A stretch of DNA of 32,000 nucleotides from Candidatus Nanoclepta minutus (GCA_003568775.1 MWMI01000003.1:30001-62000); one strand, 5' to 3'. Numbered from the stretch's first letter, positions 2,603 to 28,207 are shown. Notes: a model not told the origin generated them from the sequence alone. A program made the numbers and translations.

Positions 2603-3205
2603 ATGGAAACACTATTTGATCAATTATTATCGGTTTCTCAATCAATAGCTATTGTTATAGGAATCCTAATTTTAGGATATTTTGTTGGAAGATTAGTAAA
2701 GGTTATTTTAAAGTTTATATTGAAAAAAGTAATAGGATTGGATAAATTATTAGAAATAAAAAATGTTAAAGTATTTAGAGGTGAAGTATCAGATACTATA
2801 GCTACCATTGCTAAAGATTTTACATATTTAATATTCATAGCGTATTCTTTGATTTATAGCAAAGTGGATGTGTTGGTAACGTTAGGGAACATATTTTTAA
2901 CCGTCCTTTCCTATATATTAACTATTGTAGCTATAATGATCATAGTTCATTTAATTGTAAAGGTCTTCTTAGAAGATATATTGGGAAAACTATCCTTCTT
3001 TGAAAGTAATAGGATATTTCTGAGTTTTATATCGGCATTAGTATATATAATTGCATTTATAATAACTTTAGATTACCTAAACTTACTATCTAAAGCTCTT
3101 TTATATATATTCCTAATATTCTTCGGAAGTTTTATGATATTTATTTCCGTTACACTTGGAGTAGCTTATGGTGAGGAAGTAAAGGGAATAATAAAGAAGA
3201 AATAA
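2603..3205 (+). CDS. Small polytopic membrane protein (conserved-TM-helix / MscS-accessory-like)
   Basis: 200 aa with several hydrophobic helices. The N-terminal pattern IGILILGYFVGRLVKVILKFILKKVIGLDKLL resembles the TM_helix repeat family. The family call rests only on this by-eye motif. Confidence 0.45.
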   Translation: METLFDQLLSVSQSIAIVIGILILGYFVGRLVKVILKFILKKVIGLDKLLEIKNVKVFRGEVSDTIATIAKDFTYLIFIAYSLIYSKVDVLVTLGNIFLTVLSYILTIVAIMIIVHLIVKVFLEDILGKLSFFESNRIFLSFISALVYIIAFIITLDYLNLLSKALLYIFLIFFGSFMIFISVTLGVAYGEEVKGIIKKK

Positions 3206-3206
3206 A

Positions 3207-4340
3207 GTGGATAGAGATAAGTTAACTATATTATTTTTTTCTATTTTTACTAACATAGGTTATTCTCTCATACTTTATTCAATAAAAAGTTTTGGATATT
3301 CGGATATTTACTATACGTATTTTTTATCCGTTTTTTATTTGAGTAGTTTGTTATCTGCCCTCTTATACGGAAACATCGAAATAAACGAGAAAAACTATGT
3401 ATTTTATAATTTTTTAGGGATGTTTGCAACCCTAATTTCAATATTCTTTCTCTATAATCCAGATAGGTTTATAAATATTATACTATCTACAGTATTTTCT
3501 TATTTAATAGGGTCTGCAACTAGTTTTTCTATAATTAGATATAAGAAGGACGTTGGTCTTTACTATTACTTTACCCTTTATGGACTGTTCGGATATTTAA
3601 TTGCTCAAGCACTTCTTTTTTCAAATTTAGGCTTTAATATGATTGTATTAATGTCCTTCTTTTCTTTTTTCATTGTTAATATTATCTTATTTTCTTTTTA
3701 TTTTGAAAAGTTCTCTAAGTTTATTATAAATTCTATTAAAGAAGATTACGGACTTTTGGGGACTATAGATAGACTAATAAATTATGTAGAAGTTGAAGAA
3801 GAAAAATTTTCTATGAAGTTTGTTGGGAGGCCTACTATTATTTCCTTAATAAACCTACTTGTTGGAATTTTGTATTCACTATTTTGGTCTGTTTTAGTAA
3901 TTAAATCTTCTGTCTATAACGCTTATTATCCAATGTTCTTGTTCGTTAACAGTATTTCTTCTTTATTTATCTACAAATTCATGAAGAAAACTAATAGTAT
4001 GCTCCCATCCTTGGTAGGAGTAACCTTAAGGATGTTTTCTGTAGTTATACTGCTTTACATGTTAATAAAAGGAATAGATAGCTTATCCCTATACTTCGTT
4101 CTTTATATGTTAGCCGGAGTTTCATGGGCAGAGTTCTCGTATTATATGGATAACTATGTATTGATGAAGGGAGGAGAGGAGTACGGATATGTTACCTTTT
4201 TCAGAAACCTTTCCAGTATCGTAGGTGTATCTCTAGTTGGATTGATCGGAACATATTTCTCTCTTATTTTATCTTTTCCATTTTTCTTATCGGTTATGAT
4301 AGTAACTTTAATAGGGATTCGAAAGAAATATATAATATGA
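3207..4340 (+). CDS. Polytopic integral membrane protein, possibly an MFS-type transporter
   Basis: 377 aa with a GTG start at 3207, 1 nt after the upstream stop. There are about 10-12 hydrophobic segments throughout and no diagnostic motif. Its stop overlaps the rtcB start (ATGA). Confidence 0.5.
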   Translation: MDRDKLTILFFSIFTNIGYSLILYSIKSFGYSDIYYTYFLSVFYLSSLLSALLYGNIEINEKNYVFYNFLGMFATLISIFFLYNPDRFINIILSTVFSYLIGSATSFSIIRYKKDVGLYYYFTLYGLFGYLIAQALLFSNLGFNMIVLMSFFSFFIVNIILFSFYFEKFSKFIINSIKEDYGLLGTIDRLINYVEVEEEKFSMKFVGRPTIISLINLLVGILYSLFWSVLVIKSSVYNAYYPMFLFVNSISSLFIYKFMKKTNSMLPSLVGVTLRMFSVVILLYMLIKGIDSLSLYFVLYMLAGVSWAEFSYYMDNYVLMKGGEEYGYVTFFRNLSSIVGVSLVGLIGTYFSLILSFPFFLSVMIVTLIGIRKKYII

Positions 4341-8202: not shown

Positions 8203-8526
8203 ATGATAGATGAAGAGGAAGAGATAGTTTCAAAGCTAGAAGCTAAGATAAAAAACTTGGAATCCCTTTATAAAAAGTATAGAAAAGCTTATTTGGATAT
8301 TTTTAAAAGATTCAAGAAGTTAGCTTTAAGAAAAAAAGAAGAGGAAGTAAGAATTAAGAAGCTGCTTAAGGATCTCGATTTATTATTAAATAATATAAAG
8401 GAAGGGTTTGATAGATTAGAAAAAGTAGATGAGAGACTATCTGCCATAGAAGAAGAGATACAGGTAGTAAAGATGAGGCTAGATAAGATAGAGAAAAATT
8501 TATTTAAATATAAAGAAAAATTATAG
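8203..8526 (+). CDS. Small coiled-coil protein, function unknown
   Basis: 107 aa, K/E/L-rich with heptad character throughout. Same strand as polB and immediately downstream of it. Confidence 0.5.
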   Translation: MIDEEEEIVSKLEAKIKNLESLYKKYRKAYLDIFKRFKKLALRKKEEEVRIKKLLKDLDLLLNNIKEGFDRLEKVDERLSAIEEEIQVVKMRLDKIEKNLFKYKEKL

Positions 8527-8530
8527 AAAA

Positions 8531-9766
8531 ATGGATAATGTTGATTTTACAAGTATAGCTGAGGAGTTATTAAATCTTGTAAAAAACCTTCAATCAAGGG
8601 TATCATTACTCGAAAAAAGATCCAGTAAATTAGTTGATAGTAAATCTTTTTACGAAACTATAGGAGATCTAAAGAAAAGATTAGATTACCTGGAAGAGAA
8701 AATTGAAAAATTAAATAATTTAATAGATAAAGATACGATAAATAGCATAAAGAATATAAATAGCCTTAAAACTAAGTTGGAGATATTAGAGAATGAATAT
8801 AAAAACTTAATTAAAGATTCAGATCTTTTAGAAGTAAAGACAGAGTTGGTTAAGATAGAAAAAAGATTGAGAAGTTTAGAAGAATATGAAAAATTCGATG
8901 AATTAGTTTCCGAGATAAATAACATAAAGAGCAGTATAAATGTTTTCTCTAATGAAATAGAAACTCTGAAGGTAAAGTCTATTGATAGAGAGAGTCTTAA
9001 GGAGTATGCGAGTAAGATAGAATATTTAGAAAATTCCCTTAAGGAAAGGGAGTCTAAGATAAAACAAATATTATCGGAAATTTTAAACATAAACGATAAG
9101 TTGGATAAAATAGAAACGGAACGTATAGCAGTTTTAGAAGAGTCTATAAATAAATCTATTTATGACTTAAAAACTGAAATTGAAAATATAAGAAAAAACA
9201 TTGGAAATATAGACCTTTTGAGGAATATAGATGAAGATGATATAAGAAGGATAAGGAATCTGAAGTCTTATGAGGATTTATATAGTAAAATTATAAATTT
9301 GGAGAATAGGTTGAATTCCGTTATAACCTCTTTATACTCCATTGAGGAGGAGATTAAAAACACTTTGAGTGAGGGGTATGGAAAATACTCTAATAGGATA
9401 AAAGCTTTAGAAGATAGGATATCTTCAATTGAAAAATTATTTAATACAATTAAATCGGCTGCTGATGATATTAGGAAGGAAATAGTTGATATTAGGGATA
9501 TAGTAGTATACTTAGGTAAAGAGAACGATAAATTGAATAATAAAATAAAAGAGATGGAGGGTAGGCTTAAGATAATAAACTTGGATGAGCTTTATGATAC
9601 CTTAGAGAGGATAAAGCTATTAGAAATGGATGTAGAGAATATAAAAAGAGAACTATCATCTAAGGCTGGAGATGAGAGGGAGAGGATTAGAAATATAGAA
9701 TATGCTATAAAGAAACTCTATGAAAGACAGAACGAAATATTGGAAAACATAAAAAGAAATCTATGA
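8531..9766 (+). CDS. Long coiled-coil protein, function unknown
   Basis: 411 aa that is almost entirely heptad-like (repeated LE/IE...KL...L patterns). No NTPase or other catalytic motif. The purine-rich sense strand produces the spurious antisense ORF 8686..9090. Confidence 0.55.
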   Translation: MDNVDFTSIAEELLNLVKNLQSRVSLLEKRSSKLVDSKSFYETIGDLKKRLDYLEEKIEKLNNLIDKDTINSIKNINSLKTKLEILENEYKNLIKDSDLLEVKTELVKIEKRLRSLEEYEKFDELVSEINNIKSSINVFSNEIETLKVKSIDRESLKEYASKIEYLENSLKERESKIKQILSEILNINDKLDKIETERIAVLEESINKSIYDLKTEIENIRKNIGNIDLLRNIDEDDIRRIRNLKSYEDLYSKIINLENRLNSVITSLYSIEEEIKNTLSEGYGKYSNRIKALEDRISSIEKLFNTIKSAADDIRKEIVDIRDIVVYLGKENDKLNNKIKEMEGRLKIINLDELYDTLERIKLLEMDVENIKRELSSKAGDERERIRNIEYAIKKLYERQNEILENIKRNL

Positions 9767-10126
9767 TTTTGTTTTTTTGAAGTATTCTATAAGGACTATC
9801 AATCTTTCTATTACTTTTGATAAACTCAAGATCTTATTCTTGAACTCTTCATCTTCTTTGGCCCTTATATTTCTATAAATATTCTTTATTTCGTTTTCGG
9901 TAAGTACTCTATCATCTTTTATAATGTATATTTCATCAAAGAGATTGTTAAGACTTAGAGTTTCTAGATCTTTGTAAATCTTTTTAAAATCACTTTTATC
10001 ATATATATCATAATCTTTTTTAAATATTAAAGTTATTTTCTTTGTTTTTTGTTTTCTCTTTCTGATTTCTTCTATCTTTTCTTTTCTTAACTTAATAAAA
10101 TCCTCCGAAAGAGAGAACATTGGCAT
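9761..10126 (-). CDS. Hypothetical protein
   Basis: 121 aa, lysine-rich, with no recognisable motif. It overlaps the convergent ORF 8531..9766 by 6 nt. Confidence 0.45.
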   Translation of the reverse strand: MPMFSLSEDFIKLRKEKIEEIRKRKQKTKKITLIFKKDYDIYDKSDFKKIYKDLETLSLNNLFDEIYIIKDDRVLTENEIKNIYRNIRAKEDEEFKNKILSLSKVIERLIVLIEYFKKTKS

Positions 10127-10157
10127 AATATTAATTACAGAACTTCGGATATTAAAT

Positions 10158-10217
10158 AACTTTCAGTAGCTACTCCTCTCATCATTCATCAGGGGGTGCT
10201 CACCAACATCACCAATT
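10158..10217 (-). ncRNA. C/D box sRNA candidate (2'-O-methylation guide RNA)
   Basis: The minus strand reads aattgGTGATGT-tggtgagcacccc-CTGA-tga-ATGATGA-gaggagtagcta-CTGA-aagtt. That gives a C box GUGAUGU (10212-10206), a 13-nt guide and D' CUGA (10192-10189). A 3-nt loop follows, then C' AUGAUGA (10185-10179), a 12-nt guide and D CUGA (10166-10163). The flanks AAUU/AGUU can pair. This is the canonical archaeal C-12-D'-loop-C'-12-D layout within about 60 nt. It is the only GC-enriched patch in this intergenic region. Confidence 0.6.
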
Positions 10218-10249
10218 TTTATTAATCTTCTCATAAAAATAAAAACTTT

Positions 10250-11230
10250 ATGGATATTTTGTCTTATGCGAACGTGATTTGTATAATCTTACTCTTCTTA
10301 GCATCCGTTCAGGACATATTAAAGAAAAGCGTTAGTGATGTTATACATTATTTATCGCTGATTTTTTCAATTTCTTTTATAATCCTTACAGTATTTTACG
10401 GTATTTTACCTAGAAACTTATTTTTTGGTTATTTAGTTTTATTAATGTTCTTAATACTGTATGTTCTTAGGCTAGTTGCTATCGGAGACCTATACGTAAT
10501 TTTCTTCTTATTCTATTTCATTTCTTTCTTAGATCTAATTGGTTTAGTTAAGTTTACGGTTGGTTTAGCTTTTTTTGGAAATATTATGCATTCTATTGAA
10601 GCTATTAAGATATATATTAAAAATAAAGATAATTTTAAGACAGTCCTATTTATAACGATCATTCCATTAATTATAATTTCTCTTTCTTTATTCTTTTACT
10701 CTTTAGAAAACCTATATAATAGGACAAACTTTTTATTAATTTCATCTATCTTACTTTTAATACCGGCAATAGTACTAAAGATTTATGAACCAGAAATAAA
10801 GAAAAATTTAACATTTAAAAGGAAGGTATCTGATCTTGTAGAGGGCGATTGGTTAGAAGGGGAAATAGAGGTTAAGAGAATGGAATTCCTCGATGAAATA
10901 ATGAAGAATTTTCATGTAATTAGAAAGGATAATAAATATATAATAAAGTTCAATGAATTCAATTGGAGAAGAAGGATTATTATAATGCTTACAGGATTTA
11001 TACCTTTTCTTTTTATTAATAATCAAATCTACTTTATAGTTTCAATATTATTGATAGTCCTTCTATTAACCGCTTTGCATAAGTATATATTCCGTGGAGA
11101 GCTTGGTTTATCAAAGGAGCAGATCGATCTATTGAAGAGAACATTTGATGATAGTATAACTTTTGAAGTAATTGAAGGGGCACCTTTCATACCAGCCATA
11201 TTCCTATCCTATATCTTTGCCTTGTTATGA
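10250..11230 (+). CDS. flaK: Preflagellin/prepilin peptidase, A24 family (FlaK/ArlK-like)
   Basis: 326 aa polytopic membrane protein. LASVQDILKKSVSD closely resembles the first catalytic-Asp motif of Methanococcus FlaK (ASVQDFRSREIED). A second Asp in VAIGDLYV sits about 58 residues later, where FlaK has GxGD. The C-terminal PFIPAIFLSYI resembles the FlaK C-terminus. Confidence 0.75.
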   Translation: MDILSYANVICIILLFLASVQDILKKSVSDVIHYLSLIFSISFIILTVFYGILPRNLFFGYLVLLMFLILYVLRLVAIGDLYVIFFLFYFISFLDLIGLVKFTVGLAFFGNIMHSIEAIKIYIKNKDNFKTVLFITIIPLIIISLSLFFYSLENLYNRTNFLLISSILLLIPAIVLKIYEPEIKKNLTFKRKVSDLVEGDWLEGEIEVKRMEFLDEIMKNFHVIRKDNKYIIKFNEFNWRRRIIIMLTGFIPFLFINNQIYFIVSILLIVLLLTALHKYIFRGELGLSKEQIDLLKRTFDDSITFEVIEGAPFIPAIFLSYIFALL

Positions 11231-12228
11231 AATTTGAGTTCTTAGACAAGAAGACGGTAGTTATAAGGGTAGAGTCTGAAGAGGATTTGATTACGTTATT
11301 TAAGGTTATAAATCCAGAGGATATAGTTTCAGGTTACGATTATAGAGTTATAAGTATAGGAGAGAGGAAAGAGAGGAAGAAAGTATGGATAAAGTTAAAG
11401 GTAGAAGACATTAATTTTTCCGAGTATTCAGATAGTTTGAGGATTTCAGGCAGAATAGTAGAATCTTCTGAGGAGGTTCAGGGGCATTTCCATACCTTTG
11501 ATGTGAGAGTTGGAAGTGAGATAACCCTTTTTAAGGAGAAAGGTTTTAAAAAATACGAAATAGAAGAGCTTAATAGGAAGAGATATAAAAGAGAGTTCTT
11601 TATAGTCTCTTTAGATAGCAACTCTATATCTGTTGCTAAATTGAATTATAAGTTAGAGATATTGTTAGATGAAGATATTAACGTTCCGAAAGATCATCCG
11701 GAGAGAGAAAGCATCATCGAGAGTTATTATAAGAAGGCCGTTGATCTATTAAAGGATGCAAAAGTAATTGTTGTGGTGGGACCTGTCTTTTATCCAGAGA
11801 AGTTTAGGGATTATTTATCTGAAAGATTTAGAGATAAAAATATACTAACTTTTAGGATATCTTTAGGTGGTATAAGTGGTATATACGAATTCATAAATAG
11901 AACAGAATATCTAAAAGTTTTGGGAGAGCTTGAAATTGCAGAAATAAATGAAAAAATAGAGGATTTTATAGTTTCTGTTACTAAAAATAAGGGATGTTTC
12001 GGAATAGATGATTTGCTGGAAAAAATAGATTATTGCAATTTGGAGTATGTTCTATTATCTTATGAATGGTTTAGGAGGATAAAATCAGATAGAAACTACC
12101 TGGATAAGATACTGAGAGTTTTAGAGAAGGCGGATGAATGTAATATAGAGGTATACTTTGTTAGAAGGGAAAATAAGAACTTTGAATTTATAGATAAGTT
12201 TGGGATTGTAGGTAAGGTTAGATATTAA
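11227..12228 (+). CDS. Pelota (aPelota, mRNA surveillance / ribosome rescue factor)
   Basis: 333 aa. The N-terminal domain pattern EDLITLFKVINPEDIVSG...LRISGRIVE...GHFHTF and the eRF1-like length and architecture fit Pelota. Its start overlaps the upstream stop (ATGA). Confidence 0.85.
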   Translation: MKFEFLDKKTVVIRVESEEDLITLFKVINPEDIVSGYDYRVISIGERKERKKVWIKLKVEDINFSEYSDSLRISGRIVESSEEVQGHFHTFDVRVGSEITLFKEKGFKKYEIEELNRKRYKREFFIVSLDSNSISVAKLNYKLEILLDEDINVPKDHPERESIIESYYKKAVDLLKDAKVIVVVGPVFYPEKFRDYLSERFRDKNILTFRISLGGISGIYEFINRTEYLKVLGELEIAEINEKIEDFIVSVTKNKGCFGIDDLLEKIDYCNLEYVLLSYEWFRRIKSDRNYLDKILRVLEKADECNIEVYFVRRENKNFEFIDKFGIVGKVRY

Positions 12229-12255
12229 AATACCTGAAAGACTAAATAAAGAGTT

Positions 12256-13308
12256 ATGAGGGGTCAAACTATGGTGGTCGGGTTATTCGTTATACTTATT
12301 GGTATTTTAATATTTGTGTATTGGATACTATTACCTGTTCCAGAAAAAGAAAAACTATTGGAGGAAATATATGGATATAGGAACGTTAGTAATCAATCCA
12401 CTACAAACCTTAGTTATGAAGCAAACGTAGTTTCTAAGCTAATTTTAAGGGATATATACCTATATTCTGATAAAAAGGAGATAAATGTGGCTAGGGACTA
12501 TTATTTAGGTACTTTAGTCCCTGTATCGGAAATAGGCTTTGGGGATGTATATGAAGAAACGACAATTTTTTTAGGAAAAAAATATAAGATAATAAGGTTT
12601 TTTTATTCAAATGAAGACGCAATAGCCTTATCTTTTATTTCTAAATGTACGGGCGGTTATTTTACTATAAGAGTAAATGATTTTGAAGTATATAGTGGAT
12701 GTCCAAGCGGTATACAAAAGGTTCTTATACAAAAAGACTATCTTAGAAGGGGAGATAATATCATAAGGATTGATTTTTATCCTACGTCTATCTTCTCTAA
12801 GGCAACATTTTCTCTAAACAATACAAAACTCATATATATGAATAGGAGTAAGATAGAATATAACTTTTATTATCAAGGAGAGAGGGTTTATATATCATAC
12901 AATTTCTGTCCAGCAGATTCAAATTCCATAAACTTCTATATAAATGATTATAAATTACCGATCTATTTATGTCAAAATGATTACCTTGAGATTACTAACT
13001 ATTTAAAGAGTGGTCTGAACTATATAAAGGTTACTTCAGAAATAGAAACTAAAGTAGATCTGAAGTTTATAACTTCTAACAGTATTTTTTATTATCCTTT
13101 TAATTTTACAATAAAGGATATAGCATTTTTATATGTCATTAAAGAACAGGGGGATGCAGATATTTATGTAAATGGATGCAAGTATAGCTTAAATACATAC
13201 CAAACATCTTTCATGTTCCCAGTAAATAAAAGCTGTCTAAGTTTAGAGAACGTTTTAGTGATAAAGCCAAAGGGTTTTGTTAGGATTAATATGCTATCTC
13301 TGATTTAA
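12256..13308 (+). CDS. Type IV pilin-like (class III signal peptide) extracellular protein, unknown family
   Basis: 350 aa. The N-terminus MRGQTMVVGLFVILIGILIFVYWILL has a short basic segment, G-Q and a hydrophobic helix, as in the archaellins of this window (MKGQTGIGTLIVFI, MRRGQVGVGELLIFL). The rest is rich in N-x-S/T sequons and has 6 Cys. Confidence 0.55.
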   Translation: MRGQTMVVGLFVILIGILIFVYWILLPVPEKEKLLEEIYGYRNVSNQSTTNLSYEANVVSKLILRDIYLYSDKKEINVARDYYLGTLVPVSEIGFGDVYEETTIFLGKKYKIIRFFYSNEDAIALSFISKCTGGYFTIRVNDFEVYSGCPSGIQKVLIQKDYLRRGDNIIRIDFYPTSIFSKATFSLNNTKLIYMNRSKIEYNFYYQGERVYISYNFCPADSNSINFYINDYKLPIYLCQNDYLEITNYLKSGLNYIKVTSEIETKVDLKFITSNSIFYYPFNFTIKDIAFLYVIKEQGDADIYVNGCKYSLNTYQTSFMFPVNKSCLSLENVLVIKPKGFVRINMLSLI

Positions 13309-13309
13309 G

Positions 13310-15298
13310 ATGCTGTTAGATGATATAGCAAGAATACGTGGAACTTGGACATATTTAAGGGAGAGTGTATCGAGATACTCTTCTCTCAGTCAGCAAGAGA
13401 GAGAGAATGTTAAAAGGAGATTATTGGAAATGAAAAAATACGTAGAGAGCCTTATATCTAATTATAAAGATGCTCTAGTAGCTGCTACTATTCTTGACGA
13501 AGCTCAAAGGCTTTTACAGAGTATTCATTCACTGATTTCTCTTTTAAGAGGAGGAGATTATTATGGATCGGTATCTCCGGAAGAACTAAAGTTACGTTTA
13601 TCGAGAGTAGACAATAGTTTAAATGAACTTTTCAGGCTCGTAATGGAAAGACGAACAGTATTAGAGAATGTGTCATATTCTAGATCTAAGAGAGAAGAAG
13701 TCAAAGCAACAACACCAAAAGTAGAAGTTAAAGAAGAAGTAACAAAAGAGGAACCGGAAATTAAAGCTAAAGAGTCAGAAAAACCTAAAGAAGAGAAAAA
13801 AGAAGAGAAAGAGTCTAAAGAGGAGGAGAAAAAAGAAAAGAAATCCAAAGAGAATAAGATTATAAGAAAGATATTTTTAGCTTTATCTTTTCCTTTTATA
13901 TTATTATCATTATATTATCTATTTATTTCAAATTCTATTTATTTTTTGATTTTTAGTTCAGTTGCAATAGTTTTTTATTTTCTTGGTAGTAGAAAGATAC
14001 CTTTTGGAGCTATAATAATGGTTGTTTTACTATTTATCATTATTCATACATTTACAGCAACTGCATTTTCGAGATATATATGTCTATCTACAGGCTATTG
14101 TCCGGGAGAGAGTAAAGAGGAGAATAATGAAAAATACCTTGCAGCCGTAAAAGAGAATATTTTGAAGGCATTCAGAGATATGCAAATGATAATGAGCAAT
14201 CCCGAGGCTTATTTCATTGAAAAGCAAGCTGAATCGGAAGCTTTAGATGAGTCATATAAATACCTTTTAGATATAAGCAGTCCATATTCAGTTTATCCTG
14301 TTTATTATATGGTTGGTAAGTCCGAAAAAGAAGTAGATATCTCTAAATCTCCTCCGTTACTTTATTCTGTAAGGAGCTCCTTACCGGAAAACGTTCAAGA
14401 AATAAGAGTAGATAGTTACTGTATGGTCTCTCCAGGAATAAGTCTAAGCTGTATAAAGAGTATTGATTATGAGTATAATTTTTCGTATAATGGAAAAGTT
14501 TATTATGTAATAAAACAGACTAATGAAAAATTACCAATATATGGAATATTGAACTATTTCTGCTATATACCATCTTTTACTATAAATTTAACATCTTGTG
14601 AAGACTTGAGATCTTCTAGGTTTTATATGAAAAATCTATTCATTTTAAGGTTAAATGGAGTAAAGACTACTACTTATTATAAGTTCCTAGTTGTGGATTC
14701 AAATCTAATAGCGCAGGCTATTAAGAACAATAAGGACATTTATGCTTATCTTAATATGAACGAGTACGAATACGATAGGGGATACTTTAAAGGTTTTATA
14801 GATTTTCCGAAGATAAACGTTCTAAGACTTGGAGTAATATCAAAATATCCCTTAATTATATTTGAAGAGAATAAAAATGCAGGAAGAATGGTAAATGATG
14901 TAATATATATCTCTCTGTCGAATATAGAAGAAATATATAATATATTAGGGATCCGTATAAGGATTACTTATAACCCAAATGAGACATCAATAAAGACAAA
15001 CCTTCCTAAAGAAACAAACAATTCTCTTTATTCTTTAAATTGCACAGATGGTAATGGAGAGATAACGTGTAATATATGGTTTAATTATGCAGATGACGGC
15101 TTCCTAGGAAGGAACTTATATCTTAATTTGTATAAAGAGAATTCAGAAAGTCTATTTTTCTTCATACCTATAGAAGTAGGTATAGGGAGAGCTTTTAGAG
15201 AGTATTCTGAAGTTTTAATTACAGCAGAGGCAGAATACGATATAGAAAAAATTATTAGTAATTCTATAGAATACGTTCCCCTAGCGATTCCAAGTTAA
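13310..15298 (+). CDS. Large membrane-spanning protein, unknown family
   Basis: 662 aa. It has a helical, probably cytoplasmic, N-domain (aa 1-125) and a K/E-rich low-complexity linker (aa about 126-183). About three hydrophobic helices follow (aa about 186-255), then an approximately 400-aa Cys-containing C-terminal domain with N-x-S/T sequons. Confidence 0.6.
   Translation: MLLDDIARIRGTWTYLRESVSRYSSLSQQERENVKRRLLEMKKYVESLISNYKDALVAATILDEAQRLLQSIHSLISLLRGGDYYGSVSPEELKLRLSRVDNSLNELFRLVMERRTVLENVSYSRSKREEVKATTPKVEVKEEVTKEEPEIKAKESEKPKEEKKEEKESKEEEKKEKKSKENKIIRKIFLALSFPFILLSLYYLFISNSIYFLIFSSVAIVFYFLGSRKIPFGAIIMVVLLFIIIHTFTATAFSRYICLSTGYCPGESKEENNEKYLAAVKENILKAFRDMQMIMSNPEAYFIEKQAESEALDESYKYLLDISSPYSVYPVYYMVGKSEKEVDISKSPPLLYSVRSSLPENVQEIRVDSYCMVSPGISLSCIKSIDYEYNFSYNGKVYYVIKQTNEKLPIYGILNYFCYIPSFTINLTSCEDLRSSRFYMKNLFILRLNGVKTTTYYKFLVVDSNLIAQAIKNNKDIYAYLNMNEYEYDRGYFKGFIDFPKINVLRLGVISKYPLIIFEENKNAGRMVNDVIYISLSNIEEIYNILGIRIRITYNPNETSIKTNLPKETNNSLYSLNCTDGNGEITCNIWFNYADDGFLGRNLYLNLYKENSESLFFFIPIEVGIGRAFREYSEVLITAEAEYDIEKIISNSIEYVPLAIPS
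13685..13858 (+). repeat. Polypurine low-complexity tract encoding a K/E-rich linker
   Basis: It encodes SKREEVKATTPKVEVKEEVTKEEPEIKAKESEKPKEEKKEEKESKEEEKKEKKSKENK within ORF 13310..15298. It produces the spurious antisense ORF 13561..13848. Confidence 0.7.
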
Positions 15299-15373
15299 TG
15301 AGTTTAATATATAAATGTATCTACAGCTACCCACAGGTAAAAAATATAAAATATAGTAAATGTATGATATTAT

Positions 15374-16315
15374 ATGAAGAAGAGTACAATTAACCTATTG
15401 TTAATTTTGCCTTTATTAGGAGCAGTAATGTTGTTTCACGCATGTCCAATAATTATAGGAAAGGCTGAAAGTCAGGAAGTTAAGCCTTATCAGAGACCAT
15501 CATGGGCAGTTAATAAACCCGGAAGTATAGATTTGCTTGTATCGGATGTAGATGCCATAATAGATTATACAGTATCTCAGGGATACGAGACGGAATATAC
15601 ATTGTCCTATTCTTCCTCAGTATATACGGGGGAGAAAGATAAGAAGTATAAGGTTGATTATATAATCGGCTCTTCAATATCTGGTATTATTGAACAAGGT
15701 TCTAATTCCACATCAGAGGCATATTATGAGAGTGTAAGCGGTAGTTTCTATCCTGATACCGCAGATATAAAGAAGTTTAAGTTTGTTATCCCTGCCAATT
15801 TAAGTGGAATAATGTATGTGAATTTATACCTGATATACAATGTATCCGATTTTAAAACAAAGATATTGATTCCCCTGGACGTTAAGAAACCGCCTTCAGG
15901 AACATCAGAAATCTCTAGCAATATACCGATCTTCTATTCGGCATCTCCATTAGTTCCTTCTAAGAATACAGCGTTTTTACAGGTAACTCCGCGTAGGATT
16001 ATTGTAAACTTTAACATTGTAGATGCTGTTGGATGTTTAGCTGGCTATACAAGGATACAGCCCATCCAATATACAGCTAAAGTAAAGTATGGAAGCTCTT
16101 ATGTTAATTCTGAAGGCTTTATTAATTGCAAACCCTCAGATATAAAGAGCATACCAGCCAATATAACATGTATAATAGAGATATACAAGGATAATAATAT
16201 TTATAAGGCCTTTTCATTAGGTGAAGTGCATTTAGATTTGGAATTTGAGATAGATAAATATAGCTGTAGCTTTACTAGAGAATACATAATAAACATTAGA
16301 AAATATGAAGAATAA
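15374..16315 (+). CDS. Secreted/anchored protein, unknown family; signal peptide ends in LFHAC
   Basis: 313 aa. N-terminus is MKKSTINLLLILPLLGAVMLFHAC, and the body is beta-rich with several Cys and sequons. Confidence 0.6.
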   Translation: MKKSTINLLLILPLLGAVMLFHACPIIIGKAESQEVKPYQRPSWAVNKPGSIDLLVSDVDAIIDYTVSQGYETEYTLSYSSSVYTGEKDKKYKVDYIIGSSISGIIEQGSNSTSEAYYESVSGSFYPDTADIKKFKFVIPANLSGIMYVNLYLIYNVSDFKTKILIPLDVKKPPSGTSEISSNIPIFYSASPLVPSKNTAFLQVTPRRIIVNFNIVDAVGCLAGYTRIQPIQYTAKVKYGSSYVNSEGFINCKPSDIKSIPANITCIIEIYKDNNIYKAFSLGEVHLDLEFEIDKYSCSFTREYIINIRKYEE

Positions 16316-17149
16316 ATGAGTAATAGGATTATCCTTTTTGTAGATCTTTTCTTTTTTTCGGTATTGTTGTTTCAATCCTGCATTTATCCCGAAGCCAGAG
16401 GAACTGGTAAAGAGTACCTTATACAGGTCTTAGGTTATAACTTACCTTTAGTTATGAAGAAGGATATATCGTATAACATACCTGTAAGGATATACCTCGA
16501 GGATACTAGCCTTGATTGGGTGGTATGTTTAGCTTCCTTTAGATCTCCAGCCTTTGAAGTGAGTGGAAGCAATTGCATAAGGAAAGATCATGAATCTAAT
16601 ATTTACGAAATATATTTACCTAAGGATGGTTATATAAGAGTAGTCAACACAGATTACATACTCACAGAAACTTCGGATATAATTATTAACGCTTGTTATA
16701 CCTACTATAATATCTTTTCTATGATGGGATGTGCCTATAGGGATAGATCATGTGAGGTTAACATTACGGGAGTCTCGCCAAGGGTTAAGTATCTTGATAT
16801 AAGTAGAGCGGAGGTAATATACGATAGAAAGAATAACGAATTCTATTTAAGGATCTATTTATATCCAACTGAAGAAGAGAACGTTTATTTAATGTCTATA
16901 AACGAAAATATTAGTGAATGCTATGTTCGTAGTCCAACTGATAGATATAGGGTAAATTATGTGCTTAAATATAGTAATAGAAAAGTTGAAGGGAGCATAG
17001 ATCTGAGACCTGGAGTAGCTAACCAGGTAGATGTTAATTTAACAGAACTTGGTATAAGGGATGATCTATATTCTGTCTATCTTGAGTTTCGGGTAGATTA
17101 TATAGTCATGCAAAAGATATACTTAGGCTCTGTAAGGATTGAAAAATAA
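16316..17149 (+). CDS. Secreted/anchored protein, unknown family; signal peptide ends in LFQSC
   Basis: 277 aa. It starts directly after the upstream stop. N-terminus is MSNRIILFVDLFFFSVLLFQSC, and the body is Cys-containing. There is weak by-eye similarity to the previous ORF near the C-terminus (VKYGSSYVNSEGFI / LKYSNRKVEGSI; LDLEFEID / VYLEFRVD). Confidence 0.6.
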   Translation: MSNRIILFVDLFFFSVLLFQSCIYPEARGTGKEYLIQVLGYNLPLVMKKDISYNIPVRIYLEDTSLDWVVCLASFRSPAFEVSGSNCIRKDHESNIYEIYLPKDGYIRVVNTDYILTETSDIIINACYTYYNIFSMMGCAYRDRSCEVNITGVSPRVKYLDISRAEVIYDRKNNEFYLRIYLYPTEEENVYLMSINENISECYVRSPTDRYRVNYVLKYSNRKVEGSIDLRPGVANQVDVNLTELGIRDDLYSVYLEFRVDYIVMQKIYLGSVRIEK

Positions 17150-17180: not shown

Positions 17181-17948
17181 ATGTATAAGAGAAGGGACCA
17201 TCCAAAGAAGGGAGAGTATGTTGTATGCATAGTAAAAGAGATAGAAGATGTAACAGTAAGAGTATCTTTAGAAGAATATGAGAACTTTACTGGAATTATA
17301 CCTATCGATGAAGTATCATCTAAGAGGATATCCAACTTGAGGGAGGTAGTGAAGGAAGGTATGATAGTGGTTTGCTATGTAATCGATGTAGATCCTTCTT
17401 CAAGGGTAGCTACGTTATCCCTAAAGAGAGTAGACGAAAATAGAAAGAAAGTAAAGATGCAGGAATATAAGAAGGAGAGACAAGCGTATATTTTACTTTC
17501 AGACTTCTGTAAAAAAGAAAATATAGATATTTCATCAATATTAGACAAGATAATTTATGCAAATGATGGAAAAAAGCTATACGAAGTATTTACTCATGCA
17601 TATATAGATGGACCGAAGGTATTAGAGTCTTTTGGGATAAATAAAAGGATATCCGAAAAACTCTTTAACTATTTAAAAGAGAATTATAACGTTCCAACTT
17701 ATGAATTAAAGATAAAAATAGACATATATACGTTGAGAGGCGACGGTTTAATAGTTTTGAAGGAATTTTTAGAGGGAATAAAAGAATTGGGATTTGTAGT
17801 AAAATATTTGGGATCTCCAACCTATTATATTTATATGCAGTCTTATAATCCGAAGGAGATAGCAGAAAAGAAGAAAAAGCTTTTTGAATATATAGATAGG
17901 AGAGCAAAAGAACTAAACATAGTTTATGAGAACGTTATTGAGGAATGA
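17181..17948 (+). CDS. eif2a: Translation initiation factor aIF2 alpha subunit
   Basis: 255 aa. The N-terminal S1 domain (PKKGEYVVCIVKEIEDVTVRVSLEEY...GIIPIDEVSS...VVCYVIDVD...LSLKRV) and the two following domains match aIF2-alpha. Confidence 0.9.
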   Translation: MYKRRDHPKKGEYVVCIVKEIEDVTVRVSLEEYENFTGIIPIDEVSSKRISNLREVVKEGMIVVCYVIDVDPSSRVATLSLKRVDENRKKVKMQEYKKERQAYILLSDFCKKENIDISSILDKIIYANDGKKLYEVFTHAYIDGPKVLESFGINKRISEKLFNYLKENYNVPTYELKIKIDIYTLRGDGLIVLKEFLEGIKELGFVVKYLGSPTYYIYMQSYNPKEIAEKKKKLFEYIDRRAKELNIVYENVIEE

Positions 17949-18106
17949 AGGAAATAAGGAAATGCTTAAACTGTAAAGTTTATACTTTCAGGGAAGTTTG
18001 TCCATATTGTGGAAATAAAACTAAGAGTATAATTCCCCCAAAGTTCTCTCCCGAAGATAAATGGGGGGAATATAGGAGGAGAATGAAGAAGGGATTATTT
18101 ATATAG
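17945..18106 (+). CDS. nop10: H/ACA RNP protein Nop10
   Basis: 53-aa ORF, too short for the track, translated by hand: MKEIRKCLNCKVYTFREVCPYCGNKTKSIIPPKFSPEDKWGEYRRRMKKGLFI. It has the zinc ribbon CxxC...CxxC and the PPKFSPEDK.G.YRR signature. Its start overlaps the aIF2-alpha stop (ATGA). aIF2-alpha/Nop10 adjacency is widely conserved in archaea. Confidence 0.85.
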   Translation: MKEIRKCLNCKVYTFREVCPYCGNKTKSIIPPKFSPEDKWGEYRRRMKKGLFI

Positions 18107-20386: not shown

Positions 20387-22123
20387 ATGAGTGAAATTAG
20401 GGCTAGTTTAAAAGATTTATGCTTCAATTGTGGGAGGAACATATCCTCTAGTAGATTAAATGGTGGTTTTCCTTGTGAGGAAGATTTGAGTGAAAGTGAG
20501 ATAAAGGAAATAAGAGAGGATTATTTTTTGGAAGATTTATATAAAATATTAGAGAGAAAGAATAGACTTTATAATTTCAAAAAATTGTATGAGATAGAGA
20601 GGGAAAGTAAAGAATTCTTCAATTTTTTCTATAATGTTATAGGATCCGAGCCTTGGTCGATACAAATTGCATGGTTTAAAAGACTAATAAAGAACAATAG
20701 TTTTGCGATGATAGCCCCAACAGGCACCGGTAAGTCAACCTTTATTGCAGTATCATCGATTTACTTTTCTAAAAAAGGTAAGAAGATCCTAATAATCTTA
20801 CCTACTAAAGTTTTGGTTACTCAAATGTATGAAAGAATACATGATTATATGGAGAAGTTAAAAATATCGTTAGAAGTCTTAATGTATAGTGGAAAAAAAG
20901 AAGAAAAGAAAAGAATAGAAGAGGGGAATTTCGATATCTTAATACTCTCTAATCAATTTATTTCAAAAAATTTTTCAGTTTTAAAGGATAAAAAGTTCGA
21001 TTTTATATTTATAGATGATGTAGATGCCTTTTTTAAGGGATCCAAAAATATAGAAAAAGTATTAATGTTATTGGGCTTTAGTGAGGAAGATATTTCTATA
21101 GCTAAGGAGGTTATAGATTTGAAACTTAAAGGGAAGTTTGATTTTAAATCAAAGTTAAGGGAAGAGTTAGAGAATATTAAAAAGAAGGATCATGGAACCC
21201 TTATTTTATCTTCAGCTACGGGTAGTGTGAGAGGAAAGAGGGTAAAGTTATATAAAGAGCTGTTAGATTTCTCTGTAGGGACTGGCGTTAGCAAGCTAAG
21301 AAATATAGTAGATACTTTCATAGAAGATGCAGGGGATTTTAAGGAAAAGGTTTTAGAATTAGTTAAGAAGATGGAGGATGGTATATTAATATTCGTTAGT
21401 AAGGAGTATGGTACTGAATATGCAAAGGATCTATATAATTTTCTATTAGAAAATGGAATAAAGGTGGGCCTGGTTATATCTAAAGAGAAAAGCTCTTTAG
21501 ATAATATAAAGAAGTTTTCTTCTGGTGAAATAAACGTCTTAATAGGGATGGCTCATCACCATGGATTGCTAGTAAGGGGATTGGACCTTCCTACTAGAGT
21601 TAAGTATGCCATATTCATTGGAATACCTAAAATATCCATCAATATTACAAAGTATGAGAGGAACTTAAGGAATCTTTTAATATTATCAAACGTTGTTAAG
21701 GATCTAGTTGAAGAGAAGCCAATTATCGATAGGTTGATAAAATCTTTGAATAGGAAGATTAAGAGATTGTCGAGTGAAGCCATAGTCCTATTATCAAACG
21801 CTTATTCTTCAGGCGAAAACATAGAAGACTGGATGGAATACATATTAAGAGATGTTTATGAGTTAGAGAAAATAGTAATGAAATATATAAAGGATCCAGA
21901 TTTTTTGAAGAAACTAGATTCTCATCCTAGTTTAAGCTTAAGAGTAAAGGGAGAAGATATATATCTAAATATTGTTGATATCAAAACTTACATTCAGGCC
22001 TCTGGTAGGACTTCAAGGTTATATGCGGGTGGATTGACTAAGGGTTTATCGGTAATACTTTCAGATGATGATAAACTCTTAAGGGCACTGGATGCAAGGT
22101 TAAGGATATACTTCTACTATTAA
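20387..22123 (+). CDS. rgy: Reverse gyrase, helicase-like N-terminal half only (split gene)
   Basis: 578 aa with an N-terminal zinc finger (CFNCGR...PCEE) and PWSIQIAWFKRLIKNNSFAMIAPTGTGKST (Walker A). It also has FIFIDDVDAFFKGSKNIEKVLMLLGF, SSATG and TYIQASGRTSRLYAGGLTKGLSVIL (motif VI). The ORF stops about 35 aa after motif VI. No Toprim/topoisomerase IA domain follows anywhere in the window. Confidence 0.85.
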   Translation: MSEIRASLKDLCFNCGRNISSSRLNGGFPCEEDLSESEIKEIREDYFLEDLYKILERKNRLYNFKKLYEIERESKEFFNFFYNVIGSEPWSIQIAWFKRLIKNNSFAMIAPTGTGKSTFIAVSSIYFSKKGKKILIILPTKVLVTQMYERIHDYMEKLKISLEVLMYSGKKEEKKRIEEGNFDILILSNQFISKNFSVLKDKKFDFIFIDDVDAFFKGSKNIEKVLMLLGFSEEDISIAKEVIDLKLKGKFDFKSKLREELENIKKKDHGTLILSSATGSVRGKRVKLYKELLDFSVGTGVSKLRNIVDTFIEDAGDFKEKVLELVKKMEDGILIFVSKEYGTEYAKDLYNFLLENGIKVGLVISKEKSSLDNIKKFSSGEINVLIGMAHHHGLLVRGLDLPTRVKYAIFIGIPKISINITKYERNLRNLLILSNVVKDLVEEKPIIDRLIKSLNRKIKRLSSEAIVLLSNAYSSGENIEDWMEYILRDVYELEKIVMKYIKDPDFLKKLDSHPSLSLRVKGEDIYLNIVDIKTYIQASGRTSRLYAGGLTKGLSVILSDDDKLLRALDARLRIYFYY

Positions 22124-26282: not shown

Positions 26283-26870
26283 ATGAAGGGACAAACAGGT
26301 ATAGGAACTTTGATTGTATTTATAGCATTGGTATTGACAGCAGCTATAGCAGCTTTCTTAATAACACAGACTACTGTAGCTACACAGTCCAAGGCTGCAG
26401 CTGTTGCAGATCAGGCAAGGGAGAGGACTGGAACAACATTAGAGGTTGTAAGAGTAGAGGGATTTGTTAATACTGATAGTGCTTCTTCAAACTATGGAAA
26501 GATCGATAGATATATATTGTATGTAAGGTTAGCACCAGGATCCTCTCCGATAAACTTGGATACAACAACTATCTTGTATTATACAGCTAATGGAAGAGAA
26601 ACTTTAACTTATGGAAGTAACCAGACAGACGAAACTGCATTAGCAACTGCAGATGGAAAGTTCTACAAGTTAACTAAGTATTCATCAGAAAAGGGAACAG
26701 ATAATATATTAGAAGCAGGAGAGCTATTGGCATTAGGTGCTATGGTTAATTATACATTAGGAACCTCTGACTGGTGGAGGCTCTCTATAGTACCTAAGGA
26801 AGGACAACCAGCAGAGGTATACGGAATAGCTCCAGATGTATTTGTAGGAAACGTAATAGTATTAAGATGA
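26283..26870 (+). CDS. arlB: Archaellin (archaeal flagellin, ArlB/FlaB family)
   Basis: 195 aa. It has the class III signal MKGQ followed by TGIGTLIVFIALVLTAAIAAFLI, the conserved archaellin N-terminal helix. It continues with ...QSKAAAVADQARERTGTTLEVVRVEG. Confidence 0.85.
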   Translation: MKGQTGIGTLIVFIALVLTAAIAAFLITQTTVATQSKAAAVADQARERTGTTLEVVRVEGFVNTDSASSNYGKIDRYILYVRLAPGSSPINLDTTTILYYTANGRETLTYGSNQTDETALATADGKFYKLTKYSSEKGTDNILEAGELLALGAMVNYTLGTSDWWRLSIVPKEGQPAEVYGIAPDVFVGNVIVLR

Positions 26871-27445
26871 AGGCTCAGGTTTCTTCCGTTTTTTATTTAT
26901 TATTATTTGTAACAGTTGCATTTTTATCAGCTTATATAATTTACAATCTAAATGTTAAAAATGCTAATGTTTTAGCTAAGGATGTTGTTGTAAAGACAGA
27001 TCAAACTAGAATACCAGTATTTGATATAAGAGATGTATCATATAGCGAATTCGGATCTACGGCTAGTATAAGCTTTAATATGATAAATTTAGGAGACAAC
27101 TTAGTATTAAAGGGTTGGATAATAGAGTTTTTGTCTGGCGATATGTCTAAGGTAATATGTAGATCCATTATACTAACTGGGGATCCCAACGAAGCTTCTA
27201 GGATATCATCATCTTTCACAGTTACAAATAGAAACGCAACCTTAGATGTAGGAGGAATTATGCAATCTGGAGATATCGTGAATGTAGAATTAACATTGTT
27301 GCAAACCTGTTTAAACGAAACAATGCAATATGCTAGAAGAGAACCAAAGGTGATATTTAGGTTAGGTATACCGCCAACGTATAGAACTGCTATATTAACT
27401 TGTTCTGTAGATCCCAATACAGGCTATGCTACTTGTACCGAATAA
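26867..27445 (+). CDS. Archaellin-like accessory protein (class III-like signal; ArlF/ArlG-like architecture)
   Basis: 192 aa. MKAQVSSVFYLLLFVTVAFLSAYIIY is an N-terminal hydrophobic helix, followed by a beta-rich domain with 4 Cys. It lies between two archaellin genes and overlaps the first (ATGA). The family assignment is tentative. Confidence 0.45.
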   Translation: MKAQVSSVFYLLLFVTVAFLSAYIIYNLNVKNANVLAKDVVVKTDQTRIPVFDIRDVSYSEFGSTASISFNMINLGDNLVLKGWIIEFLSGDMSKVICRSIILTGDPNEASRISSSFTVTNRNATLDVGGIMQSGDIVNVELTLLQTCLNETMQYARREPKVIFRLGIPPTYRTAILTCSVDPNTGYATCTE

Positions 27446-27465
27446 TTTTTAATTTTTATATTTTT
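27446..27465 (+). terminator. Three T5 runs after the archaellin-like ORF
   Basis: TTTTTaaTTTTTataTTTTT lies directly after the stop codon at 27443-27445. Confidence 0.4.
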
Positions 27466-27506
27466 GATTAACAAAAAGGATAAACTTTTCTTTAAAAATA
27501 CGGAAG
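27462..27506 (+). promoter_or_regulatory. Archaellin promoter module, copy 2
   Basis: TTTTGATTAA, a 7-nt spacer, GATAAAC, a 5-nt spacer, the A/T box TTTAAAAATAC and GGAAG. The module ends 18 nt before the ATG at 27524. It is collinear with copy 1. Confidence 0.45.
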
Positions 27507-27523
27507 TTCCTTAATCATTTCTT

Positions 27524-28207
27524 ATGAGGAGAGGTCAGGTAGGTGTAGGTGAACTATTAATTTTCTTAGCTACAATCGTTGTAGCAGTTGTAGCAGCAGT
27601 AGTATTCATTACAACAGCAACAAACTTGCAGCAAAAAGCATTTGCAGTTGGTAGTGAGGCTAGGGAAAGAGTTTCAGCTACAGTCGATGTAGAATCTATT
27701 ACAGGATATAAGGGAAGTGGAACGGCAACATATGATTCTAAAAGTGTAGATAGATTCGTAGAGAATATAACCTTAGTAATTAAATTAGCACCCGGTGCAG
27801 AACCAATCAAGTTGGATGACGAAGCTACAACATTGCAAGTATTAACGCCAAGCTGGCAGTCATTAGCTATTAGATTGGGAGGATTTGCAGCTAGTAGTAC
27901 CTCTGGAGAGACATGGCCCTCTGGATTCTATTCAGACTCAGATCTAAATAACGCTCTTCAACAAGTAGATCCAGAAAAGTTCTATGTATGGGTAAACCAG
28001 TCTGTAAATAGAGATGAAATATGGCAGGTATTGTCTCCAGGTGAGCTATATACATTAGTAGTTCCATTAAACAAAAATTCTAATCATATATTACCAGAGG
28101 AGACAGAAGTTGTAGTAAAGTTCGTATCTAGAACGGGTATATCTACCACATTAAAGTTTAGAACACCATCAGTAATAAAGGATCCAATAATATTGCTATA
28201 TCCATAA
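27524..28207 (+). CDS. arlB: Archaellin (archaeal flagellin, ArlB/FlaB family), second paralogue
   Basis: 227 aa. MRRGQVGVGELLIFLATIVVAVVAAVVFITTATNLQQKAFAVGSEARERVSATVDVESITG has the same signal, N-terminal helix and ARER motif as the first archaellin. Confidence 0.85.
   Translation: MRRGQVGVGELLIFLATIVVAVVAAVVFITTATNLQQKAFAVGSEARERVSATVDVESITGYKGSGTATYDSKSVDRFVENITLVIKLAPGAEPIKLDDEATTLQVLTPSWQSLAIRLGGFAASSTSGETWPSGFYSDSDLNNALQQVDPEKFYVWVNQSVNRDEIWQVLSPGELYTLVVPLNKNSNHILPEETEVVVKFVSRTGISTTLKFRTPSVIKDPIILLYP

Follow-up and report, generated by a model that had tools for sequence, protein, structure and literature searches.

What do four adjacent genes, none of which can be placed in a known family, contribute to the cell that has kept them? 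The genes in question (open reading frames ORF1 to ORF4) lie between the pelota and eIF2alpha genes in a 32,000-nucleotide (nt) stretch of DNA from Candidatus Nanoclepta minutus (GCA_003568775.1, MWMI01000003.1:30001-62000; proteins RIB35302-RIB35308), which is called the window below. The organism is a cultured nanoarchaeal ectosymbiont; a preliminary description, made from the sequence alone, had correctly guessed a DPANN-type ectosymbiont as the source. Nanoarchaeota live attached to a host archaeon, from which lipids, nucleotides and probably also ATP reach them through a contact that measures a few nanometres in width, and the genomes of the lineage comprise only about 0.5-0.8 Mb. The reading that we favour, with a probability of about one half, is that the block encodes four lineage-specific, membrane-tethered ectoproteins in two coupled pairs, which would form a structural or adhesive assembly of the envelope with its exposed parts facing the host. 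There is good support for their being envelope proteins and for their conservation across the group; joint action of the four, and their facing the host, is what we infer.

Conservation of the four-gene block

The four co-directional ORFs claimed in the preliminary description were recovered at the same coordinates on the plus strand, with gaps of 1, 75 and 0 nt (Table 1). A word-indexed protein search found two relatives of ORF2 with 46 % identity, and their contigs carried the same four genes followed by the eIF2alpha gene. When a profile of the ORF2 ectodomain was run against 1.84 billion representatives in an exhaustive HMMER search, it matched just 17 proteins. All matches with a named source carried the label of a Nanopusillaceae metagenome-assembled genome, and one 90 % cluster of the ORF2 family also had members labelled Aenigmatarchaeota.

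Gene order was compared in 12 independent related loci (GC content 22-37 %), two of which were retrieved with a pattern derived from the ORF1 alignment. Nanopusillaceae is the label of all those contigs that have a name. As far as the contigs reach, the order pelota-ORF1-ORF2-ORF3-ORF4-eIF2alpha was found in 12 of 12 loci, as part of a wider conserved order (FlaK-like gene - pelota - ORF1-4 - eIF2alpha - Nop10 - PAC2). Where the contigs extend, collinearity ran from the FlaK-like gene to L44e/GINS, and in some loci RtcB/PolB lay upstream. Conservation of the gene order in relatives had been proposed as a check on the block; the order was kept, and none of the findings named beforehand as speaking against the block turned up.

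The preliminary description saw no motif of a known family in the four proteins, and the database searches led to the same result. Pfam and NCBIfam scans of the four proteins returned noise only, a Pfam scan of about 46 orthologues (all members of the four alignments) revealed no consistent family, and profiles of the four families had no match among all PDB sequences. Comparison of the four ORFs by hhalign detected no relationship (best probability 21 %), which left paralogy among them, as well as internal repeats in ORF1, unsupported. The block defines four new protein families, whose general type (anchored beta-sandwich surface proteins and lipoproteins) is a familiar one. Judged by the sequences retrieved, these families are restricted to terrestrial nanoarchaea (the Nanopusillaceae/Nanoclepta group).

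Table 1. Predicted features of the four-gene block and of the upstream peptidase gene, in window coordinates (aa, amino acids; TM, transmembrane; pLDDT, predicted local distance difference test score of the AlphaFold2 model)
Feature	Position	Strand	Size or remark
ORF1	12256-13308	+	350 aa
ORF2	13310-15298	+	662 aa
ORF2, cytoplasmic four-helix bundle, residues 1-121	13310-13672	+	pLDDT mostly 88-96
ORF2, K/E-rich disordered linker, residues 123-179	13676-13846	+	pLDDT <50; length differs between relatives
ORF2, three TM helices, residues 183-255, N-in/C-out	13856-14074	+	hydropathy and AlphaFold2 helices
ORF2, ectodomain, residues 256-662	14075-15298	+	pLDDT 80-95; conserved core of the family
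ORF3	15374-16315	+	313 aa
ORF4	16316-17149	+	277 aa
TATA-like element ATATTAAAATA	12222-12232	+	24-34 nt before ORF1 start; candidate ORF1-ORF2 promoter
TATA-like element AAAAATATAAAATATAG	15340-15356	+	centred about 27 nt before ORF3 start; candidate ORF3-ORF4 promoter
Probable FlaK/PibD-type GxGD aspartyl (prepilin/prearchaellin) peptidase, polytopic	10250-11230	+	profile match, I-G-D motif

Surface character and divergence

Each of the four proteins begins with a membrane-targeting or anchoring signal, in line with their earlier classification as envelope proteins, and the hydrophobic N-termini are conserved among orthologues. Sequons and cysteines, described before as abundant in all four, proved to be enriched relative to the neighbours in the window. 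The Cys content is 1.2-2.5 % in the block and 0-0.6 % in most of the cytoplasmic neighbours, and the density of N-X-S/T sequons is 0.9-2.0 per 100 aa in the block and mostly 0-0.7 in the neighbours. Cys counts are almost constant and mostly paired: 6 in all ORF1 sequences, 8 in 11 of 13 ORF2 sequences, and 5 or 7 in ORF3 and ORF4. The enrichment would fit extracellular, disulfide-bonded and glycosylated proteins of a thermophile.

The block has diverged about 1.5-2 times faster than its neighbours, and this was so in all 7 loci having data for both. Between the window and the related locus L003, for example, identity is 32, 25, 25 and 20 % for ORF1 to ORF4, but 45 % for pelota, 50 % for eIF2alpha and 39 % for PAC2. 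The fast divergence agrees with an earlier report (PMC6142677), according to which hypothetical external proteins of Nanoarchaeota have an elevated density of non-synonymous single nucleotide polymorphisms. Because the four genes are retained in every sampled member of the group and evolve faster than their neighbours, they make a short candidate list for envelope or host-contact functions.

Transcription units and packing

The preliminary description took the block for an operon. The co-directional and conserved arrangement of the genes stood, but a single operon is made doubtful by a conserved TATA-like element in the ORF2-ORF3 spacer. In 9 of 10 loci the ORF3 start is preceded, at a distance of about 25-35 nt, by an element of the TTTATAWA type, within spacers that otherwise diverge; the spacer measures 25-75 nt in 8 of 9 loci. 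The two other junctions are much tighter, from -4 to +2 nt between ORF1 and ORF2 (7/8 loci) and from -32 to +7 nt between ORF3 and ORF4 (9/10 loci). The element before ORF1 overlaps the pelota stop codon, and the loci compared have a similar A/T element at much the same spacing; the ORF1 element can be taken only as a candidate promoter, because A and T abound in this genome and the element lies partly within the pelota reading frame. A TATA-like element also precedes eIF2alpha. Since both pairs are tightly coupled and the ORF2-ORF3 spacer contains a TATA-like element, the genes are probably organised, as far as sequence can tell, as two bicistronic units (ORF1-ORF2 and ORF3-ORF4) rather than as a four-gene operon.

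Short gaps alone do not argue for an operon, because packing is equally tight between unrelated genes genome-wide. In the window the gap is -1 nt between RtcB and PolB and -4 nt between the peptidase gene and pelota. This leads to an alternative, according to which the four are functionally unrelated surface proteins, their adjacency being a retained ancestral order and their tight spacing a consequence of genome compaction. We regard it as the less likely explanation; it remains a serious one, since the neighbours of the block are just as syntenic. It draws on the collinear run from the FlaK-like gene to L44e/GINS with RtcB/PolB upstream in some loci, on the equally close packing of unrelated neighbours, on the candidate internal promoter before ORF3 and on a variable number of genes (a fifth lipobox gene in locus L005, three annotated genes in Nanopusillus acidilobi). 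The lack of detectable homology among the four proteins also agrees with it. Mere inherited adjacency does not account so well for the fact that the four proteins share compartment, anchoring logic, Cys-pair pattern and accelerated divergence, or that ORF1 and ORF2, like ORF3 and ORF4, still overlap or lie no more than a few nt apart where sequence identity is only 20-30 %. Moreover, no member of the block was singly lost or relocated in the 12 loci.

ORF2

ORF2 was modelled with AlphaFold2 from an 18-sequence alignment (mean pLDDT 79). The model and the hydropathy profile confirmed the layout proposed in the preliminary description, i.e. a helical N-terminal domain, a K/E-rich linker, about three TM helices and a Cys-containing ectodomain of about 400 aa. 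The charges fit an N-in/C-out topology, with basic residues before TM1 and in the TM2-TM3 loop. The ectodomain (8 Cys) starts with a long helix carrying an NPExY motif, which is followed by two or three beta-sandwich domains. An antisense ORF of 95 aa (13561-13848), which lies over the linker, was dismissed as a low-complexity artefact.

Among the cysteines C371, C381, C430, C578 and C587 are invariant and C418 is nearly so. The pair C258/C264 is confined to Nanoclepta-proximal sequences, and distant orthologues carry a different pair. Arg506 and the motif YDxGYYxG...PxIxIxR are also conserved. The invariant residues are thus Cys, aromatic residues, Pro and one Arg, a set that has no catalytic-looking constellation.

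The four-helix bundle, the linker and two of the three TM helices were found only in the Nanoclepta-proximal clade (proteins P0018, P0019, P0020 and P0042). Most of the other ORF2 orthologues have 408-456 aa and a single short anchor. The earlier suggestion that ORF2 could couple the cytoplasm to an external structure is therefore based on a clade-specific addition, and such coupling is not the conserved function of ORF2. In locus L007 (5300-7614) a 537-aa orthologue of ORF2 is preceded by an overlapping 247-aa ORF in another frame, which is helical and K/E-rich. The same 90 % cluster as this orthologue contains an 864-aa partial protein (P0037), which suggests a frameshift or a fused form. 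BLAST comparison of the 247-aa ORF with the N-terminal domain of the Nanoclepta protein detected no similarity (E=0.4).

A Foldseek search of the PDB with the ORF2 model returned generic beta-sandwich matches: integrin alpha legs, RbmA, FnBPA/SdrG, transglutaminase barrels and cohesin, with 5-16 % identity and with TM-scores, calculated on the query, of 0.07-0.14. The search of BFVD gave nothing useful. Like tandem beta-sandwich adhesion modules (the thigh and calf domains of integrin alpha, Vibrio RbmA, staphylococcal FnBPA/SdrG, cohesin), the predicted ectodomain is all-beta, multi-domain and extracellular; unlike them, it has a long NPExY helix and a Cys-pair pattern for which those modules offer no counterpart.

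ORF3 and ORF4

The hydrophobic N-termini of ORF3 and ORF4 end at Cys24 (FHAC) and Cys22 (FQSC), respectively, which bore out the earlier description of both as secreted proteins with signals ending in a Cys. The mature part of ORF3 is predicted to be beta-rich, and its family has the conserved motifs WAVNKPG, SSPIVP and DAxGC. Wherever the N-terminus of an ORF3 or ORF4 orthologue is complete, its hydrophobic region (h-region) closes with a Cys. Its contexts include the canonical LAGC, FLGC and GLSC as well as FSSC, FHAC and FQSC. The two families thus have what defines a lipobox, an h-region ending in [LVI][ASTVI][GAS]-Cys with a conserved Cys, the forms in the window being relaxed ones. Because the signal peptides end in this conserved, lipobox-like Cys, ORF3 and ORF4 are probably lipoproteins.

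The archaeal lipobox lipoproteins, which in Haloferax volcanii are exported by the Sec system and lipidated by AliA/AliB, share with ORF3 and ORF4, and with a fifth, paralogue-like gene in locus L005, the basic n-region, the h-region and the conserved Cys right behind it. They differ in that ORF3 and ORF4 usually have Phe at position -3, where the consensus has [LVI], and are more variable at -2 and -1; the mature domains match no known lipoprotein family. We know of no case in which protein lipidation was shown in Nanoarchaeota, and the conserved lipobox Cys of ORF3 and ORF4 makes a clear case for testing it in DPANN archaea. Lipoproteins have been predicted to be prevalent in DPANN, where AliA is present (PMC12462473).

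Two observations on related loci concern these families. In L005, the most divergent locus, a fifth lipobox protein (352 aa, LFLAGC) is encoded between ORF4 and eIF2alpha (9350-10408), and it aligns loosely with the ORF4 family. In L003 the orthologues of ORF3 and ORF4 have nearly identical signal peptides (9263-9340 and 10236-10310; S[IV]LPIFLLGTTLFYFSSC), whereas the mature proteins cannot be aligned, which points to gene conversion or to a shared targeting constraint.

ORF1 and the FlaK-like peptidase

The N-terminus of ORF1 is short and basic. It is followed by a conserved Gln, by about 20 residues of hydrophobic helix ending in YWILLPVPEKE, and by an all-beta ectodomain with the Cys pairs 131/149, 218/239 and 308/327. 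All six Cys are invariant or nearly so across 10 orthologues (C149 is present in 9 of the 10). An AlphaFold2 model made from the single sequence was unusable (pLDDT 43), beyond indicating an N-terminal helix followed by beta strands.

The preliminary description called ORF1 a pilin-like protein with a class III signal. In this genome the signal is canonical: the protein starts with MRG|QT ahead of the hydrophobic helix and fits the [KR][GA] rule (RGQTM). Elsewhere the motif is absent, as position -1 is occupied by N, Y, S or L in 9 of the 10 complete N-termini of ORF1 orthologues, so that the rule fits 1/10; it fits 1/13 ORF2 sequences. The pilin reading of ORF1 therefore rests on one genome, Nanoclepta being the only one with a canonical motif. 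Pfam and NCBIfam scans of the window proteins and the 10 ORF1 orthologues gave no match to pilin, archaellin or DUF361 families.

The FlaK-like gene ends 1025 nt before the block, with pelota in between, and it was found upstream of pelota in every locus extending that far. The preliminary description had it 1 kb upstream of the block; the distance was right, and the FlaK assignment was supported weakly. A 6-sequence profile of the gene product matched FlaK (3s0x) at E=0.0093 over residues 6-123, whereas the single protein had no Pfam match at E<1. I78-G79-D80 is invariant, the first Asp (SVQD) is present in 5 of the 6 sequences, and there are at least six hydrophobic segments. The product thus combines the attributes of Peptidase A24: two Asp residues, the second one within GxGD, in a polytopic protein. 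The Pfam scan agreed with the earlier statement that the block contains no PilB/ArlI ATPase and no PilC/ArlJ platform protein. Neither was detected among the scanned ORFs of the window (the scan excluded 26283-28207 and beyond) or in the gene tables of the related loci. An AAA ATPase encoded on the minus strand at 1416-2429 (AAA_22, ATPase_2, with a C-terminal winged-helix-like match) had a sub-threshold T2SSE match (22.4 bits, cut-off 24.9), which probably reflects P-loop similarity only; the protein is unlikely to be a PilB/ArlI.

These data bear on the possibility that the block is an accessory set of a type IV filament. ORF1, and ancestrally ORF2, would then resemble prepilins; the FlaK-like peptidase, encoded two genes upstream, would cleave them, and they would become part of the filament or be attached to it. 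The genes for the assembly ATPase and the platform would lie at other places, in the same way as the archaellum genes are scattered in these genomes. The MRG|QT sequence of ORF1 with its hydrophobic helix fits the [KR][GA][Q][T] rule, a Gln stands at the boundary of the charged and hydrophobic segments in every ORF1 orthologue with a complete N-terminus, and many short ORF2 orthologues have K/R..G before the hydrophobic stretch, the one from L012 (KGIIG) fitting the rule. In addition, every locus that extends so far has the FlaK-like gene in synteny with the block, and Nanoclepta makes archaella from dispersed arl genes (PMC10117864). In general features ORF1 and the short ORF2 proteins resemble the archaeal class III signal-peptide proteins (pilins, archaellins, ArlF/ArlG-like proteins): they have a short charged N-terminus and one hydrophobic helix followed by a beta-rich extracellular domain, and a FlaK-like peptidase gene is located near the block.

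We nevertheless consider a filament accessory set improbable. The cleavage motif lacks conservation: in nine of the ten complete ORF1 N-termini the residue at -1 is not G/A but N, Y, S or L. In one clade ORF2 tolerates a cytoplasmic extension of 250 aa and three TM helices, an arrangement incompatible with prepilin processing. ORF3 and ORF4 are lipobox proteins, not pilins, and no pilin, archaellin or DUF361 match was obtained. No gene for an assembly ATPase or a platform protein was detected, either in the block or in its surroundings (scanned part of the window). The peptidase would be required for archaellins in any case, and pelota separates its gene from the block.

Function of the block

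According to the reading that we prefer, ORF1 and ORF2 would be held in the membrane by an N-terminal helix; in the Nanoclepta clade ORF2 has three helices and, in addition, a cytoplasmic four-helix bundle. ORF3 and ORF4 would leave the cytoplasm by way of Sec-type signal peptides, and their conserved Cys would probably carry a lipid anchor. All four may expose disulfide-stabilised, probably N-glycosylated domains, rich in beta-sandwiches, between the membrane and the surface layer (S-layer), or beyond it. Expression would most likely proceed from two TATA-like promoters, one for ORF1-ORF2 and one for ORF3-ORF4, with translational coupling inside each pair. The products would form a membrane-anchored envelope assembly, whose exposed parts may evolve fast because they face the host. 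What the data show directly is the structure of the genes, the anchoring signals, the conservation, the fast divergence and the fold class of ORF2. We infer lipidation, glycosylation, disulfide bonds and the transcription units from sequence features, and the same holds for any role in host contact.

The function is most likely structural or adhesive, and not enzymatic or related to transport. An enzyme is unlikely, as there are no conserved residues of a catalytic type. A solute-binding or transport role was rejected: the block has no ABC or permease gene, and the structures are predicted to be beta-rich, not alpha/beta, for the ORF2 ectodomain with good confidence and for ORF1 from the low-confidence single-sequence model. 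The four are also unlikely to include the major S-layer protein, since their sizes and anchors are unlike those of the approximately 1000-aa candidates of the NEQ300/MJ1_0160 type (compared by size and anchor only).

Among the closest known parallels are also hypothetical surface proteins of cultured Nanobdellota, which belong to the same lineage and are of the same kind: those listed for Nanobdella aerobiophila MJ1, and the products of Nps_02065-02075 in N. acidilobi with Nst1_409-411, their equivalents in Nanobsidianus, which were matched by position only. Shared features are the N-terminal TM helix or signal, Ig-like or lectin-like beta folds and many sequons (the MJ1 proteins are likened by kind only). 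Nps_02065-02075 also occupy the same interval between pelota and eIF2alpha, but are three genes as against four.

Several observations weigh against an assembly of the proposed kind. Gene order alone proves no functional link, because the flanking housekeeping genes are equally syntenic, and nothing shows that the four proteins interact; the absence of homology among them, mentioned above, points in the same direction. In the cultured N. acidilobi the interval lists the three single-TM genes Nps_02065-02075 as 'uncharacterized'. These have no arCOG, and none of them was detected in the N. acidilobi proteome. The non-detection is weak evidence, because the predicted S-layer protein was missed as well; the lack of an arCOG suggests that there is no recognisable N. 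equitans orthologue (by position only). The cytoplasmic domain of ORF2 is not conserved. 'Adhesin-like' denotes a fold class only, since the TM-scores on the query were not higher than 0.14. Finally, the lipobox of this genome, often with Phe at -3 and with His or Gln at -2, is not the textbook motif.

A host-independent, housekeeping role in the envelope is a further alternative. The proteins would then be pseudo-periplasmic scaffolds or S-layer anchors, comparable in position to SlaB or ArlF/ArlG. Membrane-tethered beta-sandwich proteins were found in every sampled member of the lineage, whatever its host or habitat (GC 22-37 %), and in overall build they would resemble ArlF/ArlG and other beta-sandwich proteins with an N-terminal anchor. 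However, a housekeeping scaffold would hardly be expected to diverge so fast, and neither SlaB nor ArlF/G nor the proposed nanoarchaeal S-layer proteins were matched in sequence or fold in the libraries searched. As there is no recognisable counterpart in arCOG or N. equitans either, we think that such a role is unlikely.

Cryo-electron tomography of Nanobdella aerobiophila, YN1 and YN4 revealed an attachment organelle, which is made up of a tube, a portal and a cone built from repeating units, the cone sitting on the external side of the symbiont membrane. The literature up to mid-2026 names none of the organelle's proteins (PMC11104419, PMC11420986, bioRxiv 10.64898/2026.06.04.730037). The four proteins might be building blocks or membrane anchors of this organelle, but the chance is small: compatible location and conservation are the only ties between the two. 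If it were so, the four-helix bundle of ORF2 in the Nanoclepta clade would link the organelle to the cytoplasm. A role of the block in host attachment is unproven, a candidate that is neither supported nor excluded. The block is best seen as a testable candidate list and as four new families for annotation, not as a demonstrated apparatus; should the proteins turn out to be ordinary envelope furniture, its value would be limited to annotation.

Neighbouring genes

The housekeeping neighbours of the block in the window are RtcB, PolB, pelota, eIF2alpha, Nop10, PAC2, L44e and GINS; the window also contains TmcA, a cysteine desulfurase and the helicase half of a split reverse gyrase. The Nop10 gene (17945-18106, plus strand, about 53 aa, MKEIRKCLNCKVYTFREVCPYCGNK...) had not been listed. 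It overlaps the eIF2alpha stop codon and occupies an apparent gap of 178 nt ahead of PAC2. Nop10p genes are present at the equivalent place in L001 and L003-L011, the related loci whose gene tables extend there.

The reverse gyrase gene (20387-22123, plus strand) encodes 578 aa and comprises the zinc-finger and helicase half only. Split reverse gyrases are known in Nanoarchaeota (NEQ318-434 and Nps 2030-2705; Wurch et al. supplement). Two adjacent ORFs, one of 200 aa and one of 377 aa that starts with GTG, lie on the plus strand at 2603-4340 directly upstream of RtcB, with which they overlap by 4 nt; neither has a Pfam match.

Three genes just upstream of the FlaK-like gene (8203-10126) are conserved in L003, L006, L007 and L008. 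They encode a 411-aa all-coiled-coil protein, a 107-aa ORF and, on the minus strand, a 121-aa ORF. The coiled-coil protein had weak matches to FlaC_arch, DUF1664 and PEP_C. Its N. acidilobi counterpart, Nps_02095 ('chromosome segregation ATPase'), was seen in the proteome at rank 44.

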